A stretch of DNA of 64,000 bases, from sequence record PZ445473.1; one strand, 5' to 3'. The first letter of the stretch is position 1. Each line of letters opens with the position of its first letter. Below the pieces are notes generated by a model. It was not told the origin of the DNA, searched no databases, and worked only from the letters and a program-made list of their open reading frames with translations. The translations under genes were made by a program, and so were the position numbers. This stretch comes from a phage. Below, piece by piece: positions 3,178 through 63,931 of this stretch.

Positions 3178-3930
3178 ATGGCAATGCCAGATGTTCAATA
3201 CCCCATCAATACCTATGGGTGGCTAAAGAAGGCCGTGGCCCTCTGGGCAGATAGGGACGATGACGAATTTGTTAATCAAATTCCAAACTTTATTAACTTT
3301 GCAGAGAAAGAGATTTATCGTAACTTACGTATCCCTCCTCTGGAAAAAGAAGTGTATTTAGATATTAAAGATGGAGTAGCTTACATTCCTCCTGATTACC
3401 TAGAAGCTCAATGGATGATGAGAGCCAAAGATGGTACAATCTTCCAAGTAACCTCTCCTGAAGAGATTAGCTATCGTAGACAGCATGGAACAATTAATCC
3501 ATCTCATTGGAATAACCAACCTGTTAACTTTGCTCGTTTCGGTAGTCGTTTCATTTTCTACCCTAGCATCGAAGCAGATACTCCGTACTACCCTGATGAT
3601 GGAAGCCCTTTGATTCCAGCAGAAAACTCAGTAATTCTTAGCTATTATGCAGACCCACCGGAATTCCACGAAGATGAAGATACTAGTGCAATCCTCACTA
3701 TCGCACCAGAACTTCTTCTGTATTTCACTCTGCGTCATGCTTGCTTATTTGTTCAAGATGATAACGGAGTTCAGAAATGGTCAGCATTAGGAAAAGCTAT
3801 CCTTGATGAAATGGTAGAACAGAATAAGAAACAAGAGTACTCAGGTTCACCTATCGCAATTCCGAATAACATGACTCGACTTCAGAGCAGCTTGCCTGAT
3901 ATTTATGGTATTCGTACTTCTCGTGTATAA
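3178..3930 (+). CDS. hypothetical virion protein
   Basis: 250 aa ORF with AGGAGG RBS; located between capsid and tail fiber genes. Confidence 0.5.
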   Translation: MAMPDVQYPINTYGWLKKAVALWADRDDDEFVNQIPNFINFAEKEIYRNLRIPPLEKEVYLDIKDGVAYIPPDYLEAQWMMRAKDGTIFQVTSPEEISYRRQHGTINPSHWNNQPVNFARFGSRFIFYPSIEADTPYYPDDGSPLIPAENSVILSYYADPPEFHEDEDTSAILTIAPELLLYFTLRHACLFVQDDNGVQKWSALGKAILDEMVEQNKKQEYSGSPIAIPNNMTRLQSSLPDIYGIRTSRV

Positions 3931-3939
3931 GGAGATAAT

Positions 3940-6588
3940 ATGATCGTTTATAATAACCAAGCACCTGATGCAGTGAATAACGTTGGGCAGTTTGGTGCTA
4001 CTGAAGGTTCTATCGGAGCTTACAAGCAAGCAGCAGAATATGCAGCTGATTCTAAGTATTGGTCACTGTTGGCAGAGGCTAAGTTTGGTACAGTTGATGA
4101 CTTGATTGCTCAGGTTGAGATTCTATACAAACAAGGTGTTCTATTAAAAGAAGATATTGAAGACTTAAAACAAGACTTCATTGCACAAGACTCTCGTTTG
4201 ATGAACCTCATTGCTCAAACTAACGCAGCTGTAGCTGATGCAAATAATGCAGTTGCTCTGATTAATCAGAAACTTGTAGAAGTTCAGAATCAACTCGACG
4301 TTCTGTTGGGAATGTCTGTTGACGTAACTACACTTCCTCCGGGAACTCCGGCTACTGGCTCTTTTAATCCGAACACTGGTGTAATCTCTCTGGGTATCCC
4401 AGAAGGTGATCCCGGAAAGGATGGTTCTGTTACTGACCTATCTGCTGCTCCTACCGGTACACCGGAGCTGGGGGACATCGGTTTCTATGTTGACAAAGAT
4501 GATAACATTGTTCACAAAACAACTCTCGAAGATATTGCAAACCTGATCCCATCTGTTCGTTCTGTTTCAGTTAACGATGGCCCTGCGCTTGATGGTGAAG
4601 TTGCTCTTACACTCAACAAAGAGACGGTAGGTCTTGGGAACGTTTTGAACGTGGCTCAGTACAGCCGCCAAGAGATTAATGATAAGTTTGACAAAACAAC
4701 TAAAACCTACCAATCGAAAGCCGAAGCTGATGCGGATGCTCAATACCGACAGGTAGGAGAAAAGGTTTTGGTGTGGGACTCAACGAAGTATGAATTCTAT
4801 ACTGTTGCAGCGAATAAAACCCTTACTCCGGTTAAAACAGAAGGTCGTATCCTAACTGTTAACTCCCGTGCTCCTGATTCAACTGGTAACATCGATATCG
4901 TAATCCCAACAGGAAACCCATCTTTGTATTTAGGGGAGATGGTAATGTTCCCTTATGACCCAGCTAAAGCTGTCTCCTATCCGGGCATTCTTCCTGCGGA
5001 CGGTCGTTTGGTGTCAAAAGAATCTGCTTTGGATTTAGGCCCATCCCTTATCAGTGGACAACTCCCTGTTGTTTCTGAAACAGAGTGGCAAGCTGGTGCT
5101 AAGCAGTATTTCTCTTGGGGTAAATTAGCCGATGGCATCACTGATGCAGATTCTACTAACTATATCAATATCCGTCTTCCTGATTGGACAGGCGGTGAGG
5201 CTATTCGATCCCCTGATTCTGTAAAAGACAGTGCATATAAAGGTAATGTTCAAAGTCAGGTCCCTTATGTAGTCACTGTAAATAACCAAGCTCCTGATGA
5301 GATTACAGGTAACGTCAATATCTCCAGATCTATCTTAGGTGCTGCTGCTGCTGGTGCAAACTCTGATATAACATCTATGACTGGACTTACGACAGCGCTG
5401 TCTGTTAATCAGGGTGGAACAGGGGCGAAGAATGCCAGTGACGCCAGATCTAACTTAGGACTTGGTTCTGTTTCTACATTAAACAATATTCCAGTAGAAA
5501 ATGGTGGTACAGGTGCTAGTACTGCTGATGGTGCTAAGTCTAATTTAGGCGTAGACAGAATAGAACAAAGCTCTTGGGAGACTAAGATCTTTTCTCCGAA
5601 TAGAGAAACCTACATGTTTGTCGATAATAACGGATGGGGGTGTTACCGTACCACATCTGGATTGGCTGGTGATGTAGCTTTGTCAGTTGAAAGAGGGGGC
5701 ACCGGAGCAACAAATGCTGTAGAGGCTAGATCTAACTTGGGTTTAGGTTCTGTTGCCACTCTTAGTAATGTACCAATCGCTAGTGGTGGTACAGGTGCTA
5801 GTGATGCTGCCGGTGCAAGGTTTAATTTGGGGTTGGGAAATGTTTCTACTCTGGACAACGTACCAGTCGCTAGTGGTGGTACAGGTGCTAGTGATGCTGC
5901 CGGTGCCCGAAGCAACCTCGGAGCGCTGAGTAACACTCCAGCAAACACAGGTGCAGGTAATACTGGTGCGCGAGTCCAACATGCCACCGGAAGAGGTCTG
6001 TTTACTTTAGACATGTTTAACTGCTACTGGTATATGCAGCCAGAGGATACTAACTTCTGGGTTGCCCACGGTGTGTCATATGCAGGGCCTAATGGCGAAG
6101 CCTCAGAGTATGGTCGTATATCTTACGCAATAAAGATTGCAGATGGAACAACAAAATATGTCCATTGTCTTACAAACAAAAACACCATCATTGATACAGG
6201 CGGATTTATCAAAGCGGCATCTCCGGTAGTTAACATTTATGCCAACGGTCGGTATGAAACGAACGATGAGTCTGAGGGGGTTAGTGTCATCCGGCAGGGT
6301 ATTGGTGAATATCTGATTACCGGTTGCCTCGGTCTTAACTCTGATGCAAGATGGGGTGGAGTGGATGGGGGGTTTGAAATCCCAACAGATCGCAACAAGC
6401 AACCTAGGATTTGGCTGGACTATGAGGTTAAAGAAGATGGTTCTATTTTAGTTAAAACCTATCACAGAACTCACCCAACCTCTCCAGTTTTTGCTAGAAA
6501 CGAGATAGAAGGTTTTTCTGATGGGGACCCTATTGATATTCCAAGTGATGCTTTTATCTCAGTTCGTGTAGAGATGCCAGCTGAGTAA
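3940..6588 (+). CDS. tail fiber protein with glycine-rich phage tail-fiber repeats
   Basis: 882 aa; repeated GGTGA..ARSNLGLGSV.TL.NVP.ASGGTGASDAAGAR units matching the phage tail fibre repeat pattern. Confidence 0.65.
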   Translation: MIVYNNQAPDAVNNVGQFGATEGSIGAYKQAAEYAADSKYWSLLAEAKFGTVDDLIAQVEILYKQGVLLKEDIEDLKQDFIAQDSRLMNLIAQTNAAVADANNAVALINQKLVEVQNQLDVLLGMSVDVTTLPPGTPATGSFNPNTGVISLGIPEGDPGKDGSVTDLSAAPTGTPELGDIGFYVDKDDNIVHKTTLEDIANLIPSVRSVSVNDGPALDGEVALTLNKETVGLGNVLNVAQYSRQEINDKFDKTTKTYQSKAEADADAQYRQVGEKVLVWDSTKYEFYTVAANKTLTPVKTEGRILTVNSRAPDSTGNIDIVIPTGNPSLYLGEMVMFPYDPAKAVSYPGILPADGRLVSKESALDLGPSLISGQLPVVSETEWQAGAKQYFSWGKLADGITDADSTNYINIRLPDWTGGEAIRSPDSVKDSAYKGNVQSQVPYVVTVNNQAPDEITGNVNISRSILGAAAAGANSDITSMTGLTTALSVNQGGTGAKNASDARSNLGLGSVSTLNNIPVENGGTGASTADGAKSNLGVDRIEQSSWETKIFSPNRETYMFVDNNGWGCYRTTSGLAGDVALSVERGGTGATNAVEARSNLGLGSVATLSNVPIASGGTGASDAAGARFNLGLGNVSTLDNVPVASGGTGASDAAGARSNLGALSNTPANTGAGNTGARVQHATGRGLFTLDMFNCYWYMQPEDTNFWVAHGVSYAGPNGEASEYGRISYAIKIADGTTKYVHCLTNKNTIIDTGGFIKAASPVVNIYANGRYETNDESEGVSVIRQGIGEYLITGCLGLNSDARWGGVDGGFEIPTDRNKQPRIWLDYEVKEDGSILVKTYHRTHPTSPVFARNEIEGFSDGDPIDIPSDAFISVRVEMPAE
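5401..5925 (+). repeat. tandem coding repeats within tail fiber gene, including an exact 40-bp direct repeat
   Basis: TCGCTAGTGGTGGTACAGGTGCTAGTGATGCTGCCGGTGC occurs identically at 5777-5816 and 5867-5906. Confidence 0.8.
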
Positions 6589-6597
6589 ATAAAACAT

Positions 6598-6618
6598 GCT
6601 CCCTTCGGGGAGCTTTAT
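6598..6618 (+). terminator. terminator-like hairpin
   Basis: GCTCCC-TTCG-GGGAGC then TTTAT, just after the stop at 6588. Confidence 0.45.
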
Positions 6619-6630
6619 GGAGGATTATAA

Positions 6631-8820
6631 ATGTCTAGAGAATTAATGCCCAAATCTGGGATAATGATGCCTCATGTGGTAGTTACTAGAGATGCCGCAG
6701 TTGTGGGTGTGTCTACAGTTGATGGCGTGGCAGGTGCTGTTAATTTAACAGATAAATATCTACAAAAGTCTGATGCTGAAGCAACATATCAAACGAAAGC
6801 AGAAGGGGCTACTAAGCAATATGTAACCGATGTTATTAACCCTATTATGACAAATGCTCTGTTTAAAGATGACCCTTTTGTCAATAATGATACACCTATC
6901 CGCTCTGGTGGTGGTAATGGTGTTGAATCAGTGGATATGATTAAAGTTACTCCCGAGAACTCTATCAAACTAGGGAGTTATGCTTCTTCTGTTCAGGGGG
7001 TTGAGATTCACTCTGCTGGTCGTGTTCAGGTTGTTGATCAGAATGATGGTGGAGTAGAAACTAAGTATCCTGTTTATTCTAAACGTTATCGTCCTGAGAT
7101 TGAGGATTTGCCTTTTGCTGCTATTGGTTCTTATGTTAAAGATTCCAAGGGTCGTACTATTGGGGTTACTCGTACAGGGATTAACTCTGATATCAAACAG
7201 CTTACTCAGAAGGTGACTTTCACTCAACCAGTTACTGTTCCTGATGCAGTTGGAGATTATGATGCGGTTACTTTGAGACAGCTTCGAAACAGTGGTGGTG
7301 GTTCTGGTGGTCCTACCATGAGTGGTATTTCTAACTTTGGTATTGGTGATTTCCACTTACGAGACAGTCGAGCTTTTATCCCAGCTTTTGAAGTGTTTTC
7401 TGATGGGCAGCTTCTAAATCGTGCTGATTATCCAGACCTGTGGGCTTATGCACAGCTGTTATCCCCTATTGAAGACTCTTTGTGGCTAGAAGACCCTTAT
7501 CAAAGAGGCAGATACTCTAAGGGTGATGGCACAACTACTTTCCGTGTTCCAGACCGAAATGGTATTCAGTCTAATTCCCTTCCGGCTCTTTATGGACGAG
7601 GTGATGGTGGTGCTTCCGCAGCTAATGGTCAAGTGTTTGATTCTGCGGCCCCAGACATTATCGGCTCTGTTGCATCATACTCTGCTGGAACTTATGCCCA
7701 GCTTTTTGGAATAGCTACCAATGCATTTGAATCTAACAATGCCTTCTTTCCTGAAGGTGCAGGGGATACAATACCTCCGGGGTCTGGGCCAGTCGATGGT
7801 CGATATAACACTATTGAGTTTAAGGCTTCCAGATATAATGGAATTTACGGTCGCAGTAACTCAGAAATCATGGGTCGTAACTTTGTAGGTGTTTGGACTA
7901 TTCGTGCGCATGGTGGTTTTACTGCTGCTAATACTTCTTGGTCAGTAATCAATAGTGATGCTTCAGAACCACCTACAGGTACTCCTATTACTGGTGGATT
8001 GGTTTCTTCTAAGTATGTAGTCGGAGGTGTTGATAAGTACCGTTCTTCCATACAACTACTAGGTGCTAACGAAGTTGATCTGTCTACGAGAATTACCACC
8101 ATAAATGATAGATATGCAATTGGGGCAGCTACTTGGGATTTTAAACTGGATGGGAAACTACTTTTTAATAAATCACTTACCCCCAATGGGACAGGCTATT
8201 CTCCCGGAAACACCTATCTAACATTAGCCAACACTTGGATGACCTCTCCTTATAGTGGGTATGTTGGGTTTGTTGGGGGCGGCGTTGGTGTTTCTGGTGG
8301 CGGTTGGAGAAACTTCATCTCTTTAGGTTCTTTGATTTTCCCTGATACGAGTCATCCTACTGCTGTTATTTCTCAGGTTTATGATTATGACCTTTCTACA
8401 GGAAACCAACCTAATGGGGATATTGTCAGAAATACCTCTTTCAATGCTGGGAGTTATGATATCACTTTCGGTAACAACTCCGGTACAGTAAACTACCTCT
8501 TCAGTAAGTCCCCTGTGTCTGATGAGAATAAAAAGCATGATATCACCCCCATCAGTACAGAACAAGCCCTTCTTAATATAAACAAGATGAAATACAGCTC
8601 ATTCATCTATAATTATGATGAGAAGAATATTGTTCGCAGAGGCTTTATTGCTCAGCAACTAGAGAAGATTGACAGTCAATATGTACGTAAGTACAAAGAT
8701 GCTACTGGAGGTGAAACACTCTCTTTGGATGAGAACGTTCTGCTTTTGGATGCACTAGCTGCAATCCAAGAACTTACCAAAAAGGTTGAAGTTCTAGAAG
8801 CGAAGTTAGCAGGTAAGTAA
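6631..8820 (+). CDS. tail fiber/tail spike protein with C-terminal intramolecular chaperone (peptidase S74-like) domain
   Basis: 729 aa; C-terminus DENKKHDITPISTEQALLNINKMKYSSFIYNYDE...GFIAQQLEKIDSQYV...LLDALAAIQELTKKVEVLEAKLA resembles auto-cleaving chaperone domains of phage fibers; GGAGG RBS. Confidence 0.65.
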   Translation: MSRELMPKSGIMMPHVVVTRDAAVVGVSTVDGVAGAVNLTDKYLQKSDAEATYQTKAEGATKQYVTDVINPIMTNALFKDDPFVNNDTPIRSGGGNGVESVDMIKVTPENSIKLGSYASSVQGVEIHSAGRVQVVDQNDGGVETKYPVYSKRYRPEIEDLPFAAIGSYVKDSKGRTIGVTRTGINSDIKQLTQKVTFTQPVTVPDAVGDYDAVTLRQLRNSGGGSGGPTMSGISNFGIGDFHLRDSRAFIPAFEVFSDGQLLNRADYPDLWAYAQLLSPIEDSLWLEDPYQRGRYSKGDGTTTFRVPDRNGIQSNSLPALYGRGDGGASAANGQVFDSAAPDIIGSVASYSAGTYAQLFGIATNAFESNNAFFPEGAGDTIPPGSGPVDGRYNTIEFKASRYNGIYGRSNSEIMGRNFVGVWTIRAHGGFTAANTSWSVINSDASEPPTGTPITGGLVSSKYVVGGVDKYRSSIQLLGANEVDLSTRITTINDRYAIGAATWDFKLDGKLLFNKSLTPNGTGYSPGNTYLTLANTWMTSPYSGYVGFVGGGVGVSGGGWRNFISLGSLIFPDTSHPTAVISQVYDYDLSTGNQPNGDIVRNTSFNAGSYDITFGNNSGTVNYLFSKSPVSDENKKHDITPISTEQALLNINKMKYSSFIYNYDEKNIVRRGFIAQQLEKIDSQYVRKYKDATGGETLSLDENVLLLDALAAIQELTKKVEVLEAKLAGK

Positions 8821-57967: not shown

Positions 57968-58411
57968 CTACTTAACCCTTGCTTCTTTGATGGGGTCAAT
58001 GTATTTTTCAACTCCCCACTTGCGTTTACTGTCAGCGTAGAAAACATCAGGTGCACACTGGCTTGTCTTAGGAAATGCTTGCGGGTCTTTCGTGCTACCT
58101 TTAAACTTCTGTTTACCACGGGTGCGACCATTACAGAAGATCTCTAACTTCTTCTCTTCTTCTGTTTTAGCGCCACCGCTCCGTAATAAAGAGCGTTTAT
58201 GATCGGCTAACAATAACGCATCAGCACGATGGACACGATGACCTAAACGTTTTGCCACACTGGAAGGAATATGAGATTCAGCTTCAGCCTTTGCAGCACG
58301 ACGCTTTAAACTACGCTTGCTAACGTGATTGGTTGCCTTTGGTTTCTCTTTCTCCAATTCAGAAATAGAAAAACAACGCCCGCCCTTCATGCTGATTTTA
58401 GATTTAGCCAC
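57968..58411 (-). CDS. hypothetical basic protein
   Basis: 147-aa ORF. Confidence 0.4.
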   Translation of the reverse strand: MAKSKISMKGGRCFSISELEKEKPKATNHVSKRSLKRRAAKAEAESHIPSSVAKRLGHRVHRADALLLADHKRSLLRSGGAKTEEEKKLEIFCNGRTRGKQKFKGSTKDPQAFPKTSQCAPDVFYADSKRKWGVEKYIDPIKEARVK

Positions 58412-58480
58412 TATCTTATTCCTTTCAGTGATAAGTTATATCGGGCAAGCCCATCAAGGCGATAGGCTTGAACAAATAAC

Positions 58481-58690
58481 TCAACCAAGTAAACCAAATG
58501 ATTTCCAACTACGCAGTAAGATCGTACCATCATCCATAGTTACGCATAATTTTAGTAGTCGCTTACTGGTACTGCTCACCGTTGTGATTCGTCCGGTTGT
58601 GCATTTACCTTTATTGCTATAAAGATATATAACACGATGGCCTAACAAACGAGATGGCGCTTTCTTAAATTCTGAGATGTTAGTGATCAT
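58481..58690 (-). CDS. hypothetical small protein
   Basis: 69-aa ORF abutting the next gene. Confidence 0.35.
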   Translation of the reverse strand: MITNISEFKKAPSRLLGHRVIYLYSNKGKCTTGRITTVSSTSKRLLKLCVTMDDGTILLRSWKSFGLLG

Positions 58691-58908
58691 TATCCATATA
58701 CCTTAACATGATTGATTCGACGTGAATGATGATAAGAAGACTCAACAGCCATTGCCTTTAATTCTTCTTTTCGTTGGTTAGTGTGTACAATATCCCAATG
58801 ATTATGATCGTGTTGGCGCTGTAATATCTTACTACATTTGCGATGGTTTCCCGTGCTGCGACGTTTCTCACAAATAGGACACTTGCCAAAATTATTACTG
58901 AATATCAT
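58690..58908 (-). CDS. small Cys/His-rich protein
   Basis: GKCPICEKRR...HDHNHWD. Confidence 0.35.
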   Translation of the reverse strand: MIFSNNFGKCPICEKRRSTGNHRKCSKILQRQHDHNHWDIVHTNQRKEELKAMAVESSYHHSRRINHVKVYG

Positions 58909-59132
58909 TTTCTCAATCCTAACTTTCTTAAGACACGGCCTAACGTTGTTTCTTGGGTGATAATATACCTGACCGCTTCACGTTCCAACGTTTCAATCTT
59001 CATTGGCGACGGATACCATTCACCGGTAAGCATACACCTATACTCAACGCCATACTTTTTAGATAGGCGGTAATGTTGACCGTTGATAAGGTTCCTATAA
59101 ATCGTGGTATGCGTCGTTAACATAATCGTCAC
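58905..59132 (-). CDS. hypothetical small protein
   Basis: 75-aa ORF with overlapping stop/start. Confidence 0.35.
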   Translation of the reverse strand: MTIMLTTHTTIYRNLINGQHYRLSKKYGVEYRCMLTGEWYPSPMKIETLEREAVRYIITQETTLGRVLRKLGLRK

Positions 59133-59235
59133 CTTTGATTAGATTCTTTGATTAGTACACTGAATCAATGCACTGATAAAAGAAAAGGCGCTACCCGTTA
59201 AAGATAGCGCCTCATGTTTATTTAGATTGTCTTAC

Positions 59236-60144
59236 TTATGCCGCCTGACGTGCCGCCATAATTTCAGCCGCTTTACGCAATACTTCTTCCTCTTCTGCTT
59301 TCGCCGCTTGTTCGGTACGGGTAGCAACCGTTGAAGAGATACGACCGCGCAGACTTTCTAACTTCTCTTGCATAGCTGCGATGGTCTTTTCCATTTCATC
59401 AGCGTATGAATCCAGTGATTCCAATTCCTTGCTTGATGCGTTCATCAGATAATCATCCGAGATCGCTACCGTTGAGGCCGTCACTTTCTTGATGAGTGAG
59501 TCGAATGACTTCTTAACCTTGCCGACTTCTTCACTTAAGGCAATAGTGTTATCACTGGTAGCGCCGTTGCGCTCATCGGCCAACAATTTTGCTTCAATAC
59601 GGATTGCATTCAAGCGTTCAACTAAAGCGTAAATATCCTGATTAAAATCTTCCTTGTTTTTCGCCGGGATTTGCAGATGGGCCGCCACGTTGTCATTGCA
59701 ACCTTTATAAAAGTTAGGATTATCCACTTCAATTGCACGACCTAAAGCAAAATTCTCGAAAGCATTCGACCAGCGAGCGCGGTTTTGTTCCATTTTGGCC
59801 TTAATTTGCGCTTCTTTCGCATCTTCTTTCGCTTTCGCCTCGCCTTCCAGATTAATCCATTTTTTACGACCGTTCGCCGCCTCGGTGTTAAACTTGATTG
59901 GAGTTAAGAAAGTAATTGCAGTGGCAATAACATCCATATCGCGGAAACGTTCAGTTAACAGAAAATCGACCGCCGCTTGCAATACATCTAACTTTTTACC
60001 GTTGCTGCGAAAGTGCTGCAAATGCCCTAAAAGGAAGTTAGAAACATCTTGTTTAATCGCCGCGTTATTTTTGCGGATGTTGTTTGCCAGCGCGTTAAAA
60101 CCGGATTCTTTTACCAGATTAAAAACTTTAGCCATGATATTCAC
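59236..60144 (-). CDS. hypothetical helical protein
   Basis: 302-aa ORF; GC- and CpG-rich by eye. Confidence 0.45.
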   Translation of the reverse strand: MNIMAKVFNLVKESGFNALANNIRKNNAAIKQDVSNFLLGHLQHFRSNGKKLDVLQAAVDFLLTERFRDMDVIATAITFLTPIKFNTEAANGRKKWINLEGEAKAKEDAKEAQIKAKMEQNRARWSNAFENFALGRAIEVDNPNFYKGCNDNVAAHLQIPAKNKEDFNQDIYALVERLNAIRIEAKLLADERNGATSDNTIALSEEVGKVKKSFDSLIKKVTASTVAISDDYLMNASSKELESLDSYADEMEKTIAAMQEKLESLRGRISSTVATRTEQAAKAEEEEVLRKAAEIMAARQAA

Positions 60145-61062
60145 CTTTCAATTATAAGGGCACTATTGCCCCGCTCGCTATGAGCTTTTAAGCCATTATT
60201 GACTTAGCTATAGTCACTCACTAATAAATAACTATAGGTAAGCGGAGCGGTCTTATCAGGAGTTAACCTTGCCGCTCCCTTATCCGTGGTCTTTCATCTG
60301 GTGGATTCAATTAATCGCTATAAAGAAAGCCGATTTGCCAGCGATGATCAATCACCACAATAAGGCTAGTGTGTCCGACCCTAATTAGTTACAATAATGC
60401 AACCGTCGGCAATATCGTTTACTTTGCTTTCGCTCCCGCCTATCCTTTTATATCAGCTCTTTATCGCTAGTCATCGCCCACTACGGGATACTATTGCGAA
60501 AAAGTCACTAACCGCCTATTATTCCGGCGTTTTATATCTTTCAACGGGTTTACTACATTACCCGACTATGTACTTTCATCATCAGACGAATCTCAAGCCG
60601 TTCGCATCGTAAACGTTCACACTGACACCTTATTGTTAAATAGCAATTCGCTACTCTTTAACCGTTCGCCGCCGCTCTCAATTGAGCGTTAATTCGTCGG
60701 GATTGCCTACCCTGATCAACTTCTTTCACCGTAGCGCCTTTTTAGCTAGGCCGCCGCTACCCATTAACCGTGGGCGATTAGTTTTAGCCTTGCGTGCACT
60801 CGATGAATCCGCTTATCAGTGGTGACGTTTCCAGTTAAGGGATTGTAAAGCTGTTTACCCTGATAATTTAGGGAGCTTTACGCCGTTTTATCTGGTATGT
60901 TTTCCGATGGTCATTATCATCCAACATATGCAACCGATATAGGGGAACGTTTAAATTATTAAAGAGCGGTAAATCTGTCAGTGTGCTTTCTCACACTACG
61001 CAACTGTTAGCCGTTGTGTCGCTTTTTCACTGAAGCGGTGATTTGCTTAGTGACTTGTGCTC

Positions 61063-61091
61063 ATTATGAACCATGTTGTTTTAGTTGTCAA
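61063..61091 (-). promoter_or_regulatory. sigma-70-type promoter (minus strand): -35 TTGACA, 17-bp spacer, -10 CATAAT
   Basis: Plus TGTCAA 61086-61091 and ATTATG 61063-61068; A-rich tract upstream on minus strand. Confidence 0.5.
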
Positions 61092-61372
61092 TCACTTTTT
61101 TAATCTTTTTTCGTCGCTCCCCTTATTGGGAGGATATATCAATCAGCTATATTTGATTGAAGATTAAGCGATGAATGCTTAAACTTATGATTCATATTTT
61201 TAAAGAGCGGTGGAGCATTTACAGCTTAACACGTCGTGTTAGCTTGTCAATCTCTTTTTTTATCGTCTTCTTTGATTCTCTTCCCTTATCTCGCTTGATT
61301 CTATGCGAAAGGGCAAGACGATAATTTTTTAAAGAGCGAGATGTTTTAAGTCATCGCTGACCTTGTACACTC

Positions 61373-61400
61373 ATTATAGGTTAGGCTTTTCAGTTGTCAA
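61373..61400 (-). promoter_or_regulatory. sigma-70-type promoter (minus strand): -35 TTGACA, 16-bp spacer, -10 TATAAT
   Basis: Plus TGTCAA 61395-61400 and ATTATA 61373-61378; A-rich tract upstream on minus strand. Confidence 0.55.
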
Positions 61401-62052
61401 ATACTTTTTCAAGTATTTTTTCACTTTCTAGCCTGATTTTTAAAGAGCGGGGCAATTTCTTGCCTTGTATGTTTTACATCGTACCCGATGGAAATGAGTA
61501 TACGCGAGCCTTTAGAAAGTGCAATAGGGGAAAGCAAATTATTTTAAACTTTTTCACTGTAGGGAAGATAGAAGAGCGGGCTGACGTGGTACACCATAGA
61601 AAACGGCTTGTAAAGCGATAAGAAACGGCCTTGAACGCGCTACAGTGAGCTAAAAGGGAGTAAGGAATACAACCCCCTTAGAAAAGAGAAAAGCCTCATG
61701 GTGAGGCTTATGGGAATGATTTAAAGCATCAGATAGATTATGACCGCAGAACAGACCACGGGAAACGTGCCAGATAATGCGGTAGTAATATTCCACTTAA
61801 ATAATCATCAACTCATAAAAGAAAAGAATAAAAGAAACGCTGAAAAAGAAAAGAATAAAAGAAATAATCATCCACTTTATTAATATATACATCATTATTG
61901 CACTCATAATTATCACCATTGAAACTATTATCAACGTAACTATGGGGATGGCGATAGTTGCTATCCGGTATTAATAGCCTCGATATAATCAAGCCTTTAC
62001 TAGTTCGTTATCAGTGCTAGCCTTTCCCATACTCTTTAAGGGGGCACTAAAT

Positions 62053-62122
62053 AAACGGGTATTAAATGTATAGGATGGTATACACGGGGCAATAACTGCA
62101 CGGGATAGGGCACGGGAAAAGT
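62053..62122. repeat. clustered ACGGG-core repeats
   Basis: AAACGGGTA, ACACGGGGCA, GCACGGGATA, GCACGGGAAAA within 70 bp; TACACGGG recurs at about 62483 and 62622. Confidence 0.4.
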
Positions 62123-62256
62123 GGAACGTTGAAAAAGAAGGTAAAGGCATTGCCAATATCCCTTTTTTAAATGAGGACTCCCCCTTTTTAACAATTCGCC
62201 GCGGAGTGCCTAGCCCCACTCGGTCAAATCAGAATTTTAAACTCTTATATATAAGG

Positions 62257-62409
62257 ATGAGTATGAATCTGGACACTAAAGAGTTCATTGAGATTGCAAT
62301 AGAAAACAACTTAAAGAAAGTATCAAATCCCTCTCTTCCAGATGGTGAACGGGTAGAAGCAGTCTCTTTAGTATTAATGCTAACTAAGGCTTTACGGGAG
62401 ATGGAATGA
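62257..62409 (+). CDS. hypothetical small protein (first gene of the rightward arm)
   Basis: ATG at 62257 or 62263 after AAGGA; track start 62206 has no RBS. Confidence 0.4.
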   Translation: MSMNLDTKEFIEIAIENNLKKVSNPSLPDGERVEAVSLVLMLTKALREME

Positions 62410-62567
62410 ATCTAATTAAAGTATTTAGACGAATGAAATGTAAGCACAATTACTATCTTCTTCGTAAAGCTTACGGGGATGAAAGAATACACGGGCTATA
62501 CTTATCAACATGGAAATGTAAGGAATGTGGTAAGCTTAAACACAGCACATGGATGGATAGGCCTTAA
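62406..62567 (+). CDS. small zinc-ribbon-like protein (below track size cutoff)
   Basis: 53 aa with CKHN...CKECG; start overlaps the upstream stop (ATGGAATGA). Confidence 0.35.
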   Translation: MNLIKVFRRMKCKHNYYLLRKAYGDERIHGLYLSTWKCKECGKLKHSTWMDRP

Positions 62568-62706
62568 CGTGACTAGGCCTTAACATGATGTCCCCTTTAT
62601 GACATGCCCTTTACTTCAGCGTACACGGGTTATTGGTATGAGGGTAGTCATCAGAGATGACATGGCCTTTACGGGTAGGTCTTATGATGTGCCCTTTATA
62701 CTTCAG
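62558..62706. repeat. iteron-like direct repeat cluster
   Basis: GGCCTTAAC twice; ATGATGTCCCCTTTAT, GACATGCCCTTTAC, GACATGGCCTTTAC, ATGATGTGCCCTTTAT. Confidence 0.5.
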
Positions 62707-62747
62707 AGACAGCTACTACGTAGCGTCGTATTCAGAGGAGAAGAATT

Positions 62748-62969
62748 ATGAATTTAGTATTAGACTTTTTATCAGAGGTTGTGCCTCGCTTTCGTACGGA
62801 GACTTGTGCCTTCGTTAAAATATCCCCTGAAGAATTAGAATGCATTGGTCGTCTGGTTGACTTGGATGACGATGAAGAATTTGATGCAACGATGGAAGTT
62901 AGTAGCCTAGGATGGTTATTCTTCCGAGCGTTCACCACTATCAAACCACACACTTATAAGGAATACTAA
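62748..62969 (+). CDS. hypothetical protein
   Basis: 73-aa ORF with GAGGAG RBS. Confidence 0.45.
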   Translation: MNLVLDFLSEVVPRFRTETCAFVKISPEELECIGRLVDLDDDEEFDATMEVSSLGWLFFRAFTTIKPHTYKEY

Positions 62970-62972
62970 TTT

Positions 62973-63404
62973 ATGTTAGATTGTAAATATCAAGGAGATG
63001 ATATGTTAGATTTAATCCACACTACTCGCCCTAATTCTAAAACTAAAACACAACCATCTACTCTGGAAGTAATTGAATACGAATCTACTAAACATGATCA
63101 CCTCCCTGACTATGCTCGTGCAATGATTGAGATGATTGAAGAAGCTGAATATGAAATGCTCCATGATTACATCACCTCCAAAGATGAATGGCATCGTGAT
63201 GTTCGAATCGAAGAAGATGGTACAGAAATAATTACGTGGGTTCACAAGAGCGAGTTAGTAGACGACGCACTGCGAGACTACGAAAAATTTTTGGTCGACG
63301 GCTCTATTCTTTTAGAGGAAGAGAAGGGTGTAGAACTTCCGTGGGAGGGTGAGACAGTTGCTTTAGGTAAGATGTTTAACCTGTCCGTTGGTGATTGTAA
63401 GTAA
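62973..63404 (+). CDS. hypothetical acidic protein
   Basis: ORF from 62973; a better RBS (AAGGAG) precedes the internal ATG at 63003. Confidence 0.45.
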   Translation: MLDCKYQGDDMLDLIHTTRPNSKTKTQPSTLEVIEYESTKHDHLPDYARAMIEMIEEAEYEMLHDYITSKDEWHRDVRIEEDGTEIITWVHKSELVDDALRDYEKFLVDGSILLEEEKGVELPWEGETVALGKMFNLSVGDCK

Positions 63405-63409
63405 TGTTT

Positions 63410-63431
63410 GCCTCTTTTGGGAGGCTTTTTG
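63410..63431 (+). terminator. rho-independent terminator
   Basis: GCCTC-TTTTGG-GAGGC followed by TTTTT. Confidence 0.55.
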
Positions 63432-63440
63432 TGTTGTTGA

Positions 63441-63454
63441 TAATGTAGAAGGAG
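63441..63454 (+). promoter_or_regulatory. TAATGTAGAAGGAG motif (TAATGTA promoter-like element plus RBS)
   Basis: GATAATGTAGAAGGAG immediately upstream of the ATG at 63461. Confidence 0.35.
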
Positions 63455-63460
63455 TATAAA

Positions 63461-63931
63461 ATGTTTGGAGAAAACGGAGAACTCACACCTGCACAGGTAG
63501 CTGAGATTACAGGAAGATTACCCGGAGTAACGGAAGAACTTGAATCCAAGGGTATGAACCCAAGCAATGGGAAGTTTCAAAAGGGAAATAAATTCGGACG
63601 ACCCAAAGGTAGTAGAGGTAAACTGACACAATTAATGTTGGACCGTGTTGCTGCAAGTCATTTGTCTCCTGATGAAGTGTTAATTCAAATTTACGAAGAT
63701 CCTAATATTCCACCTGATCTTAGATTCAAGGCTGCATCAAAAGTTGCAGATCTGGTATATCCTAAGGCGGCCTCTGTTGAAGTTAAGATTGAGGAAGAGA
63801 ATGTAGTCAACGAAGAATCACTGAATGCACAAATCAAGGACTTCTTGACTGGAGCACTTGGTATCGACGTTATGCCTCCAGAAGACAACTCCGAGGACGC
63901 TGAAAAGGGGGAGGAAGCGGACGAGAGTTAA
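63461..63931 (+). CDS. hypothetical protein, possible DNA-binding/packaging protein
   Basis: 156 aa; basic N-terminal region GRPKGSRGK then acidic C-terminus; terminase role is a guess from position. Confidence 0.4.
   Translation: MFGENGELTPAQVAEITGRLPGVTEELESKGMNPSNGKFQKGNKFGRPKGSRGKLTQLMLDRVAASHLSPDEVLIQIYEDPNIPPDLRFKAASKVADLVYPKAASVEVKIEEENVVNEESLNAQIKDFLTGALGIDVMPPEDNSEDAEKGEEADES

Follow-up and report, generated by a model that had tools for sequence, protein, structure and literature searches.

The 64,000-nucleotide stretch of phage DNA analysed here (sequence record PZ445473.1; below, the window) carries at positions 62554–62700 an array of six head-to-tail units of about 15 nt, all on the plus strand, with the consensus TGR-N4-S-CCTTWAY. 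Judged from comparison with related phages, the units are a nucleic-acid element under selection. As for function, we tentatively favour a polar region with several recognition sites for the small terminase, which may belong to the concatemer-junction and packaging machinery of Kuravirus-like phages. No description of the array was found in the accessible literature on phiEco32, SU10, YF01, 7-11 and the BASEL phages.

The window matches Escherichia phage JacquesWildberger_Bas92 at 100% identity (PQ850610.1, a record of 67,748 bp deposited in circular form), and its positions are record positions minus 3748. Bas92 is a Kuravirus of the phiEco32-like phages (Gordonclarkvirinae), with LAMP, Bas93 and Bas94 as nearest relatives, followed by about 90 phiEco32-like phages, and can be propagated on E. 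coli K-12 in which the O16 O-antigen is restored (PMC11990801). In phages of this type, structural and packaging genes are read rightward in one arm and middle and early genes leftward in the other, and the genomes carry direct terminal repeats (DTRs) close to 190 bp long (PMC8948821, PMC4281155, PMC9965538), given as 192–193 bp in one of these studies (PMC9965538). Kuravirus genome ends are exact. The main early gene cluster occupies the genome end opposite the array, and transcription relies on host RNA polymerase and the phage sigma factor gp36, whose promoter consists of a single element, tAATGTAtA (PMC8948821).

Architecture and conservation of the array

The array is organised in two blocks, a tandem block A with unit starts at 62554, 62570, 62586 and 62600 (period 14–16 nt), and a block B with starts at 62658 and 62685. 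When both strands of the window (127,970 positions) were scanned with a position weight matrix (PWM) trained on 35 distinct units from 12 other phages, the six Bas92 units took ranks 1–6 with 18–22 bits, the next best position reaching 15.1 bits, which places the six-unit array far beyond chance. The information profile of the matrix is bipartite, with TG, four nearly free positions, and S-CCTT-W-A; TG, CCTT and the A are near-invariant, and the N4 positions vary. The pattern [AG]TGA-N3-5-CCTTWAY has five matches on the plus strand of the window, all five inside the array.

From left to right, block A consists of TGGATAGGCCTTAACG (62554–62569; rank 3, 18.8 bits), which overlaps the last codons and the stop of a zinc-ribbon-like open reading frame (ORF), TGACTAGGCCTTAACA (62570–62585; rank 2, 19.5 bits), TGATGTCCCCTTTATG (62586–62601; rank 5, 18.3 bits), a member of repeat family D1, and TGACATGCCCTTTACT (62600–62615; rank 6, 18.2 bits), the D1 reference copy. 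A central spacer element, TTCAGCGTACACGGG (62615–62629, plus strand), carries an ACGGG-type box as found in the terminal repeat; it is nearly invariant across Kuravirus, the version in Suseptimavirus being ...TACATGGG. Block B consists of TGACATGGCCTTTACG (62658–62673; rank 1, 22.4 bits), with an ACGGG box directly 3′, and the last unit, TGATGTGCCCTTTATA (62685–62700; rank 4, 18.7 bits). The original prediction for this stretch, at least six repeats with a G(G/C)CCTTWAC core at 62558–62706, was borne out, and each sequence that it quoted is present: ATGATGTCCCCTTTAT at 62585–62600, ATGACATGCCCTTTAC at 62599–62614, ATGACATGGCCTTTAC at 62657–62672, ATGATGTGCCCTTTAT at 62684–62699, and two TAGGCCTTAAC units at 62558 and 62574.

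Counted from the predicted right boundary of the terminal repeat (62211), the first unit lies 343 bp to the right; counted from the left terminus (62019), the distance is 535 bp. Its GC content is 43–50%, and that of the array with its flanks 35–50%. The distance from the last unit to the ribosome-binding site (RBS) of the next ORF is 18–19 nt in most relatives and 42 nt in Bas92. An insertion specific to the Bas92/Bas93/LAMP clade lies here, at 62701–62730 between the last unit and the gp4 RBS, and holds a small hairpin, GCTAC-TAC-GTAGC (62712–62724); in Kuraviruses outside this clade the last unit runs straight into the RBS.

A search with the array alone recovered 84 phage records, with one site per genome, and none of 5,426 complete E. 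coli genomes, and a two-unit tandem pattern was found in IMG/VR only on Kuravirus-sized contigs. Conservation in relatives, which the original prediction had named as a check, is thereby supported, and the arrangement of block A, a near-invariant TTCAGCGTACAYGGG and block B is kept in all Kuravirus and Suseptimavirus genomes examined. The number of units varies, with four in LAMP, six in Bas92 and seven in SU10 as scored by the PWM, and 4–8 among the relatives overall, and units are gained and lost as whole 14–16-nt modules. ORFs have been inserted between the blocks in phiEco32, and after block B in NJ01 and PE006. Polarity is strict: of 97 units scoring at least 12 bits in 69 kb scanned from 16 phages, 86 are on the plus strand, and the 11 on the minus strand are all the single inverted copy in the terminal repeat.

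The same unit is kept in three contigs (L017, L019 and L025) that encode more distant homologs (72%, 70% and 74% identity, respectively, in one alignment) of gp6, the putative small terminase (TerS). Each has one cluster 170–570 nt right of a DTR-like region, within the 5′ part of a gp5-like ORF, where the unit cores are read in two frames (CCT-TTA as Pro-Leu, and xCC-TTT as Ala/Pro-Phe) and, in a nucleotide alignment of the three, constitute the only conserved stretches of that ORF region. The other cluster, a tandem set of three units, is located 50–110 nt upstream of terS. The array is upstream of terS in every case. An Aeromonas-phage-like contig with the same TerS/TerL/portal module (L023) has its own diverged array upstream of terS (3630–3800), with six copies of G[GC]CATG in 156 nt and units of the form TATGA-N-T-R-G-S-CATG (5–6 copies), the 5′ half of which is common to the Kuravirus unit. 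The near-invariant motif positions, the gain and loss of whole modules, the restriction to one array per genome and the conservation of the cores in two reading frames together argue for the selection on the units stated at the outset.

Other repeats were seen in these distant relatives. L023 also contains three copies of TTYCCAGTGT, and L024, in which the TerS/TerL/portal module is present as well, has three to four direct repeats of TTCAGTGT upstream of terS (3420–3580). In L021, four of the five AGGGTG copies fall in the DTR-like region and the terS leader, a pattern that was not reproduced in L022.

Terminal repeat, shared boxes and the candidate small terminase

A 193-bp DTR is predicted at 62019–62211, present as a single collapsed copy in the circularised record. 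The linear records of LAMP, phiEco32, Paul and SU10 (4/4) all start at the base aligned to 62019, and the left and right copies in phiEco32 are identical across 193 bp, with boundaries ...AGTGCT|AGCCTTTC (GTGCT|AGCC) and ...GCGGCT|AGGCAC. CT|AG junctions are found in Bas92 as well, at 62018|62019 and 62211|62212. The DTR annotated in the LAMP record is 172 bp, as opposed to 193 bp. Both boundaries can be written as CT|AG(C/G)C (GTGCT|AGCC; G(C/G)CT|AG(C/G)C) in phiEco32 (L003/L009) and at the homologous positions of Bas92, a sequence that could be the terminase cut motif.

The array and the DTR have two kinds of element in common. The first is the ACGGG box, the main repeat within the DTR, which recurs within the array. 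Four boxes (62055, 62084, 62100 and 62112, plus strand) form the cluster at 62053–62122 that the original prediction had described separately from the array, and since the DTR maps to 62019–62211, this cluster lies inside the terminal repeat. The predicted recurrence of TACACGGG at about 62483 and 62622 also holds, with three copies in the 64 kb (62081, 62488 and 62622), all on the plus strand; the copy at 62488 is within a small ORF and is not kept in phiEco32 or SU10. One third (10/30) of the plus-strand ACGGG copies in the window fall in 61900–62800. In Kuravirus, the DTR contains four ACGGG and no ATGGG (8/8 examined), whereas that of Suseptimavirus has one ACGGG and three ATGGG (4/4 examined), and the Suseptimavirus array region has 0–1 ACGGG and seven ATGGG. 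Judged from these sequences, the boxes of the DTR and those of the array have changed together, from ACGGG to ATGGG, in Suseptimavirus.

The second common element is a single inverted array-type unit, TGGCAATGCCTTTACC, on the minus strand of the DTR at 62140–62155 (PWM rank 8/127,970, 13.9 bits). Its offset is constant in 11 of the 12 genomes of Kuravirus and Suseptimavirus that were examined, and it is the sole minus-strand unit anywhere. No unit of at least 12 bits was found by the PWM left of the DTR, in 58001–62018. The array keeps within roughly the first kilobase to the right of the terminal repeat, and both kinds of element recur in the DTR, which is not transcribed. Because the ACGGG cluster lies inside the DTR and elements of the array are common to the DTR and co-change with it, a function in packaging or end processing is favoured.

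A number of further sequences in and around the DTR were considered. A weaker unit-like sequence, AATCAAGCCTTTAC (61986–62001; PWM rank 71), is located 20 nt left of the left DTR boundary, and relatives have GCCTTAA-type sequences about 45–60 nt ahead of this boundary, with poor conservation. The conserved DTR core ATGAGGACTCCCCCTTTTTAAC was evaluated as a "stretched unit" and rejected, its best alignment score being reached by 0.6% of random windows, which is not unusual. IHF-consensus sites flanking the DTR (61987 and 62227) are not conserved among relatives, and TTCAGYGT as a common motif showed no enrichment. A CCCTTTTTTAA/CCCCCTTTTTAA pair is present within the DTR at 62160–62191; in the equivalent region of SU10, sequencing reads show heterogeneity in T-run length that differs between the left and right repeat copies (PMC4281155).

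The candidate for the array-binding protein is gp6 (63461–63931, plus strand), a putative TerS encoded immediately upstream of the large terminase (TerL), the gene for which begins just past the end of the window. The assignment is based on synteny with TerL and portal, and on profile matches in the PDB to the TerS of NV1 (7JOQ, E=2e-3) and PaP3 (6W7T, E=0.08), and gp6 has been assigned as TerS elsewhere (PMC9965538). The TerS of PaP3 binds its end sequence specifically by means of helix-turn-helix (HTH) motifs from neighbouring ring subunits (PMC7672466). As gp6 is TerS-like, is encoded beside TerL and is the sole candidate for sequence-specific DNA binding identified near the array, a role of the array in packaging recognition is favoured. 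The strict polarity of the units and their constant position upstream of terS count in favour of this role as well.

The 20-mer bound by the PaP3 small terminase, GCCGGCCCCTTTCCGCGTTA (L016, positions 1–20), and the Kuravirus left terminus, AGCCTTTCCC (62019–62032), both contain CC(C)TTTCC, which may be compared with CCCTTTA in the array units; the likeness may reflect a common terminase specificity, or chance. The end region of PaP3 has no similar array, though the TerS-bound 20-mer contains CCCCTTT, and we keep this as a lead only. In two metagenomic relatives the packaging genes are themselves interrupted in a mobile-element-like manner: terL of L024 is split into separate N- and C-terminal genes (5240–7083), with an HNH gene beside terS, and the portal gene of L018 (6137–8459) is interrupted by a GIY-YIG gene.

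In the mechanism that we propose, subunits of the ring-forming small terminase gp6 would dock side by side on successive units, with the 4–8 head-to-tail units located 340–490 bp right of the 193-bp repeat, upstream of terS–terL, as docking region. In concert with the ACGGG boxes and the lone inverted unit of the DTR, the array would designate the left end and set packaging in the rightward direction, and the large terminase would be positioned to cut precisely at the CT|AG repeat boundaries. The array-bearing end would be packaged first, provided that the opposite end, with the early cluster, enters the cell first. A more specific and slightly less probable version is a "remote" packaging signal of a kind not described before: a TerS ring would recognise the polar row of 15-bp units at several hundred base pairs from the genome end, communicate with the reversed unit and the ACGGG boxes of the DTR, and set both cuts, which might provide for exact 193-bp repeats without a phage RNA polymerase.

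Several observations weigh against a packaging function. The array is 340–690 bp from the cuts, farther than lambda cosB, P1 pac and the T7 arrays are from theirs, and the terminal cut site is not itself unit-like, the common stretch being only AGCCTTT (PWM rank 1803). Every array unit is sense-oriented within a predicted rightward early transcript. The assignment of gp6 as TerS combines a modest profile match with synteny, and a Foldseek search with a model of mediocre quality (pLDDT 67) gave no significant match, PaP3 and NV1 TerS ranking second and seventh. Furthermore, the identity of the TerS N-terminus in array-bearing lineages is confounded with phylogeny, and no such arrays were found in L021 and L024, which have more distant TerS proteins.

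Alternative functions and the neighbouring genes

Because the units are sense-oriented within the predicted early transcript, explanations based on an operator or on RNA retain some probability. In an operator-type array, which we consider unlikely, a phage or host transcription regulator would bind the tandem units cooperatively and act as a roadblock or activator platform for the rightward operon at the far left (gp4 and gp5, in some relatives also terS). Short-period tandem direct sites are typical of ribbon-helix-helix regulators and ParR-type proteins. The array is located downstream of a promoter-like element, GGTCAAATCAGAATTTTAAACTCTTATATATAAGG (62221–62257, plus strand), which is highly conserved just right of the DTR, is kept even in L019 and L021, and has been proposed by the SU10 authors (S2 table) as the sigma-70 promoter of the leftmost genes; a consensus promoter scan gave no call for it. 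Together with two small ORFs, this element fills the region between DTR and array. In addition, the last unit stays ahead of whichever ORF follows, at the RBS distances given above, and units in L017, L019 and L025 are placed just upstream of terS.

An operator is opposed by the result that no sigma-70-like promoter (−35/−10 hexamers with a 16–18-nt spacer) was called in 62406–62747, in or beside the array. The units are not gp36 promoters, the motif being different and tAATGTAtA not contained in them, and the Kuravirus late promoter has no units nearby. The TGTGATGTTATA repeats of phage 7-11, considered as a counterpart of the array, resemble a phage-sigma promoter element and not the units. 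The downstream gene varies by lineage, and units are tolerated within ORFs. This tolerance of position, with ORFs inserted between and after the blocks, fits a site that acts at a distance better than a promoter-proximal operator. No DNA-binding regulator was identified nearby, and an operator would leave unexplained both the boxes in common with the non-transcribed terminal repeat and their joint change. The operator option of the original prediction is retained at this low probability, with no promoter found in or beside the array.

Of the small ORFs, one at 62406–62567 (plus strand) encodes a 53-aa CxH...CxxC zinc-ribbon-like protein, a homolog of LAMP gp0.1 and of phiEco32 gene 1 (phrog_7696; a weak zinc-finger phrog), and its stop codon falls in unit 1. 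Since the ORF is absent from L017, L019 and L025, all of which retain units, the gp1 zinc-ribbon protein was rejected as an obligatory binder.

Directly downstream of the array are gp4 (62748–62969) and gp5 (62973–63404), both on the plus strand, small genes whose leader contains the array and which the SU10 authors predicted to be early. The gp5 protein is strongly acidic (35 D/E as against 15 K/R in 143 aa), and the label "ABC transporter" that it carries is inherited from the PHROG name and has no backing from Pfam. Being among the leftmost genes, at a genome end, gp5 could encode an Ocr-type DNA mimic or anti-restriction protein; high resistance to restriction–modification (RM) systems was described for this phage group in the BASEL paper. 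An intrinsic-terminator-like hairpin (63410–63433) and a gp36-type late promoter element, TAATGTAGA (63441–63449), follow gp5 on the plus strand. The element is identical to the SU10 late promoter gttgataatgtagaaggag (consensus tAATGTAtA; PMC8948821). The late promoter, of a type defined by experiment, is about 740 bp downstream of the array, and the original description of the repeats as standing at the head of a late arm is imprecise, gp4 and gp5 being predicted early. The TAATGTAGA element overlaps the Shine–Dalgarno region of terS (63441–63461), and transcription from gp36 promoters starts 6–8 nt past the element (PMC8948821). On this basis, the leader of a late terS transcript would be only about 4–6 nt long and lack the RBS, which would be present only on read-through transcripts from upstream.

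An action of the units as linear motifs in the early rightward transcript appears improbable; an RNA-binding protein of the phage or the host would bind them, either at boxA-like NusB/NusE sites for antitermination through the terminator before terS or as a protein sponge. All array units in the 16 phages are in the sense orientation, between the putative promoter and the pre-terS terminator, the unit core GCCCUUUA matches the boxA core GCUCUUUA at 7/8 positions in two units, and the plus-strand array RNA of Bas92 folds better than shuffled sequences (z=−2.6), which the minus strand does not. However, the Bas92 hairpin uses a segment missing in LAMP, SU10 and NJ01, and an alignment of nine phages gave no conserved RNA structure (consensus −5.67 kcal/mol, covariation term +0.67, no compensatory pairs). 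For boxA/nut membership, GCUCUUUA(ACAA) and an adjacent conserved hairpin are expected, and neither a conserved hairpin nor an Rfam match for the array was found. boxA does not cover the unit's conserved 5′ half (TGR), six copies would be unprecedented for nut/boxA, and the inverted unit and co-varying boxes of the terminal repeat are upstream of the putative promoter. A reading as Rho rut-like sites was rejected, as G exceeds C in the array.

Replication-origin iterons bound by a phage initiator are slightly harder still to reconcile with the data. Iterons are direct repeats of variable copy number, and the units within a coding region in some relatives recall lambda ori, which lies inside gene O. 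A cumulative GC-skew minimum is found near the array, yet it coincides with the switch in gene orientation. The period of 14–16 bp does not correspond to about two helical turns. With a GC content of 43–50% and G in excess of C, the array is neither rut-like nor placed beside an AT-rich unwinding element, the only AT-rich stretch (61780–61930) being some 620 bp away, beyond the DTR. Initiator-like, Rep-like or regulator domains were not found in the five neighbouring ORFs, in a region where most phage genes have no known function, and an origin would not readily account for the second cluster that relatives have immediately upstream of terS. Of the three options in the original prediction, packaging is accordingly favoured by the terminus-linked and co-changing elements, and iterons are disfavoured by spacing and by the position of the AT-rich region. 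Functionless replication slippage in non-coding DNA could explain the different copy numbers of close relatives such as LAMP, Bas92 and SU10, but is effectively ruled out by a motif, orientation and location that two genera and three more distant lineages have retained, in coding and non-coding DNA, with position-specific conservation.

The AT-rich stretch (18–27% GC) contains two perfect 21-nt direct repeats, AAAAGAAAAGAATAAAAGAAA, at 61817–61837 and 61844–61864. Together with the DTR it belongs to a segment of about 2.1 kb (60109–62262) in which no coding sequence is annotated in the deposited record, and in which a minus-strand terminator-like hairpin (61709–61691) matches one listed for SU10.

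Comparison with known systems

The recognition, cutting and duplication of short exact terminal repeats is an old problem, even for T7, and the SU10 authors noted that phiEco32-like phages must process their repeats differently from T7 because they lack a phage RNA polymerase. A conserved polar two-motif element that extends from the repeat to the terminase leader provides concrete DNA substrates for binding and transduction assays, and could aid terminus annotation and the design of packaging-competent vectors for a common, little-studied and defence-resistant phage group. Should the "remote" signal prove true, it would offer a tractable system for the recognition and duplication of short terminal repeats; should the array instead be an operator or an RNA element, it points to a regulator of the first genes at that end.

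Tandem direct repeats of variable copy number, with gain and loss of whole units, are features that the array has in common with iteron origins and with ParR- and omega-type operator arrays. Unlike these, no adjacent AT-rich region, cognate initiator or regulator gene, or promoter was found here, and the period is 14–16 bp. The pac site of P1 and pacL/pacR of SPP1 are built of clustered short boxes to which the small terminase binds, and as in these, two clusters of short direct boxes (here 4–5 plus 2) are located in or near the terminase gene region. P1 and SPP1 are headful phages, with cuts in or beside the boxes and permuted genomes, in contrast to the exact ends of Kuraviruses.

T7 is, like Bas92, a podovirus with a short DTR, and its SRL and SRR arrays of a heptamer are reported to flank the terminal repeat (Dunn and Studier 1983). 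In both systems many copies of a short motif, all pointing the same way, stand next to the terminal repeat, related elements occur within it, and a role in concatemer processing or packaging is suspected. The T7 arrays have a 7-bp core and abut the repeat on both sides, whereas there is one array here, on the left-end side only and about 340 bp off, with a bipartite 15-bp unit and a second type of box. T7 packaging models also invoke the phage RNA polymerase, which is absent here; packaging signals pacB and pacC have been described for T7 and T3 (PMC9860248).

Lambda offers a further comparison. In cosB, the gpNu1 sites R1–R3 lie beside cosN, no more than about 120 bp from the nick site, with one site reversed and a conserved IHF site between them. 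As in cosB, several units of about 15–16 bp, which in lambda are small-terminase sites, are located between the cut and the terminase genes, one copy is reversed, and the location is at the genome end presumed to be packaged first. Instead of three sites, there are 4–8 tandem units in the Kuravirus-like phages, at 340–690 bp from the cuts, possibly with small genes between, and there is no conserved IHF site; the ends are a 193-bp terminal repeat and not cohesive. The closest functional parallel is lambda cosB, the SRL and SRR arrays of T7 being close as well, and the array is a strict member of neither class.

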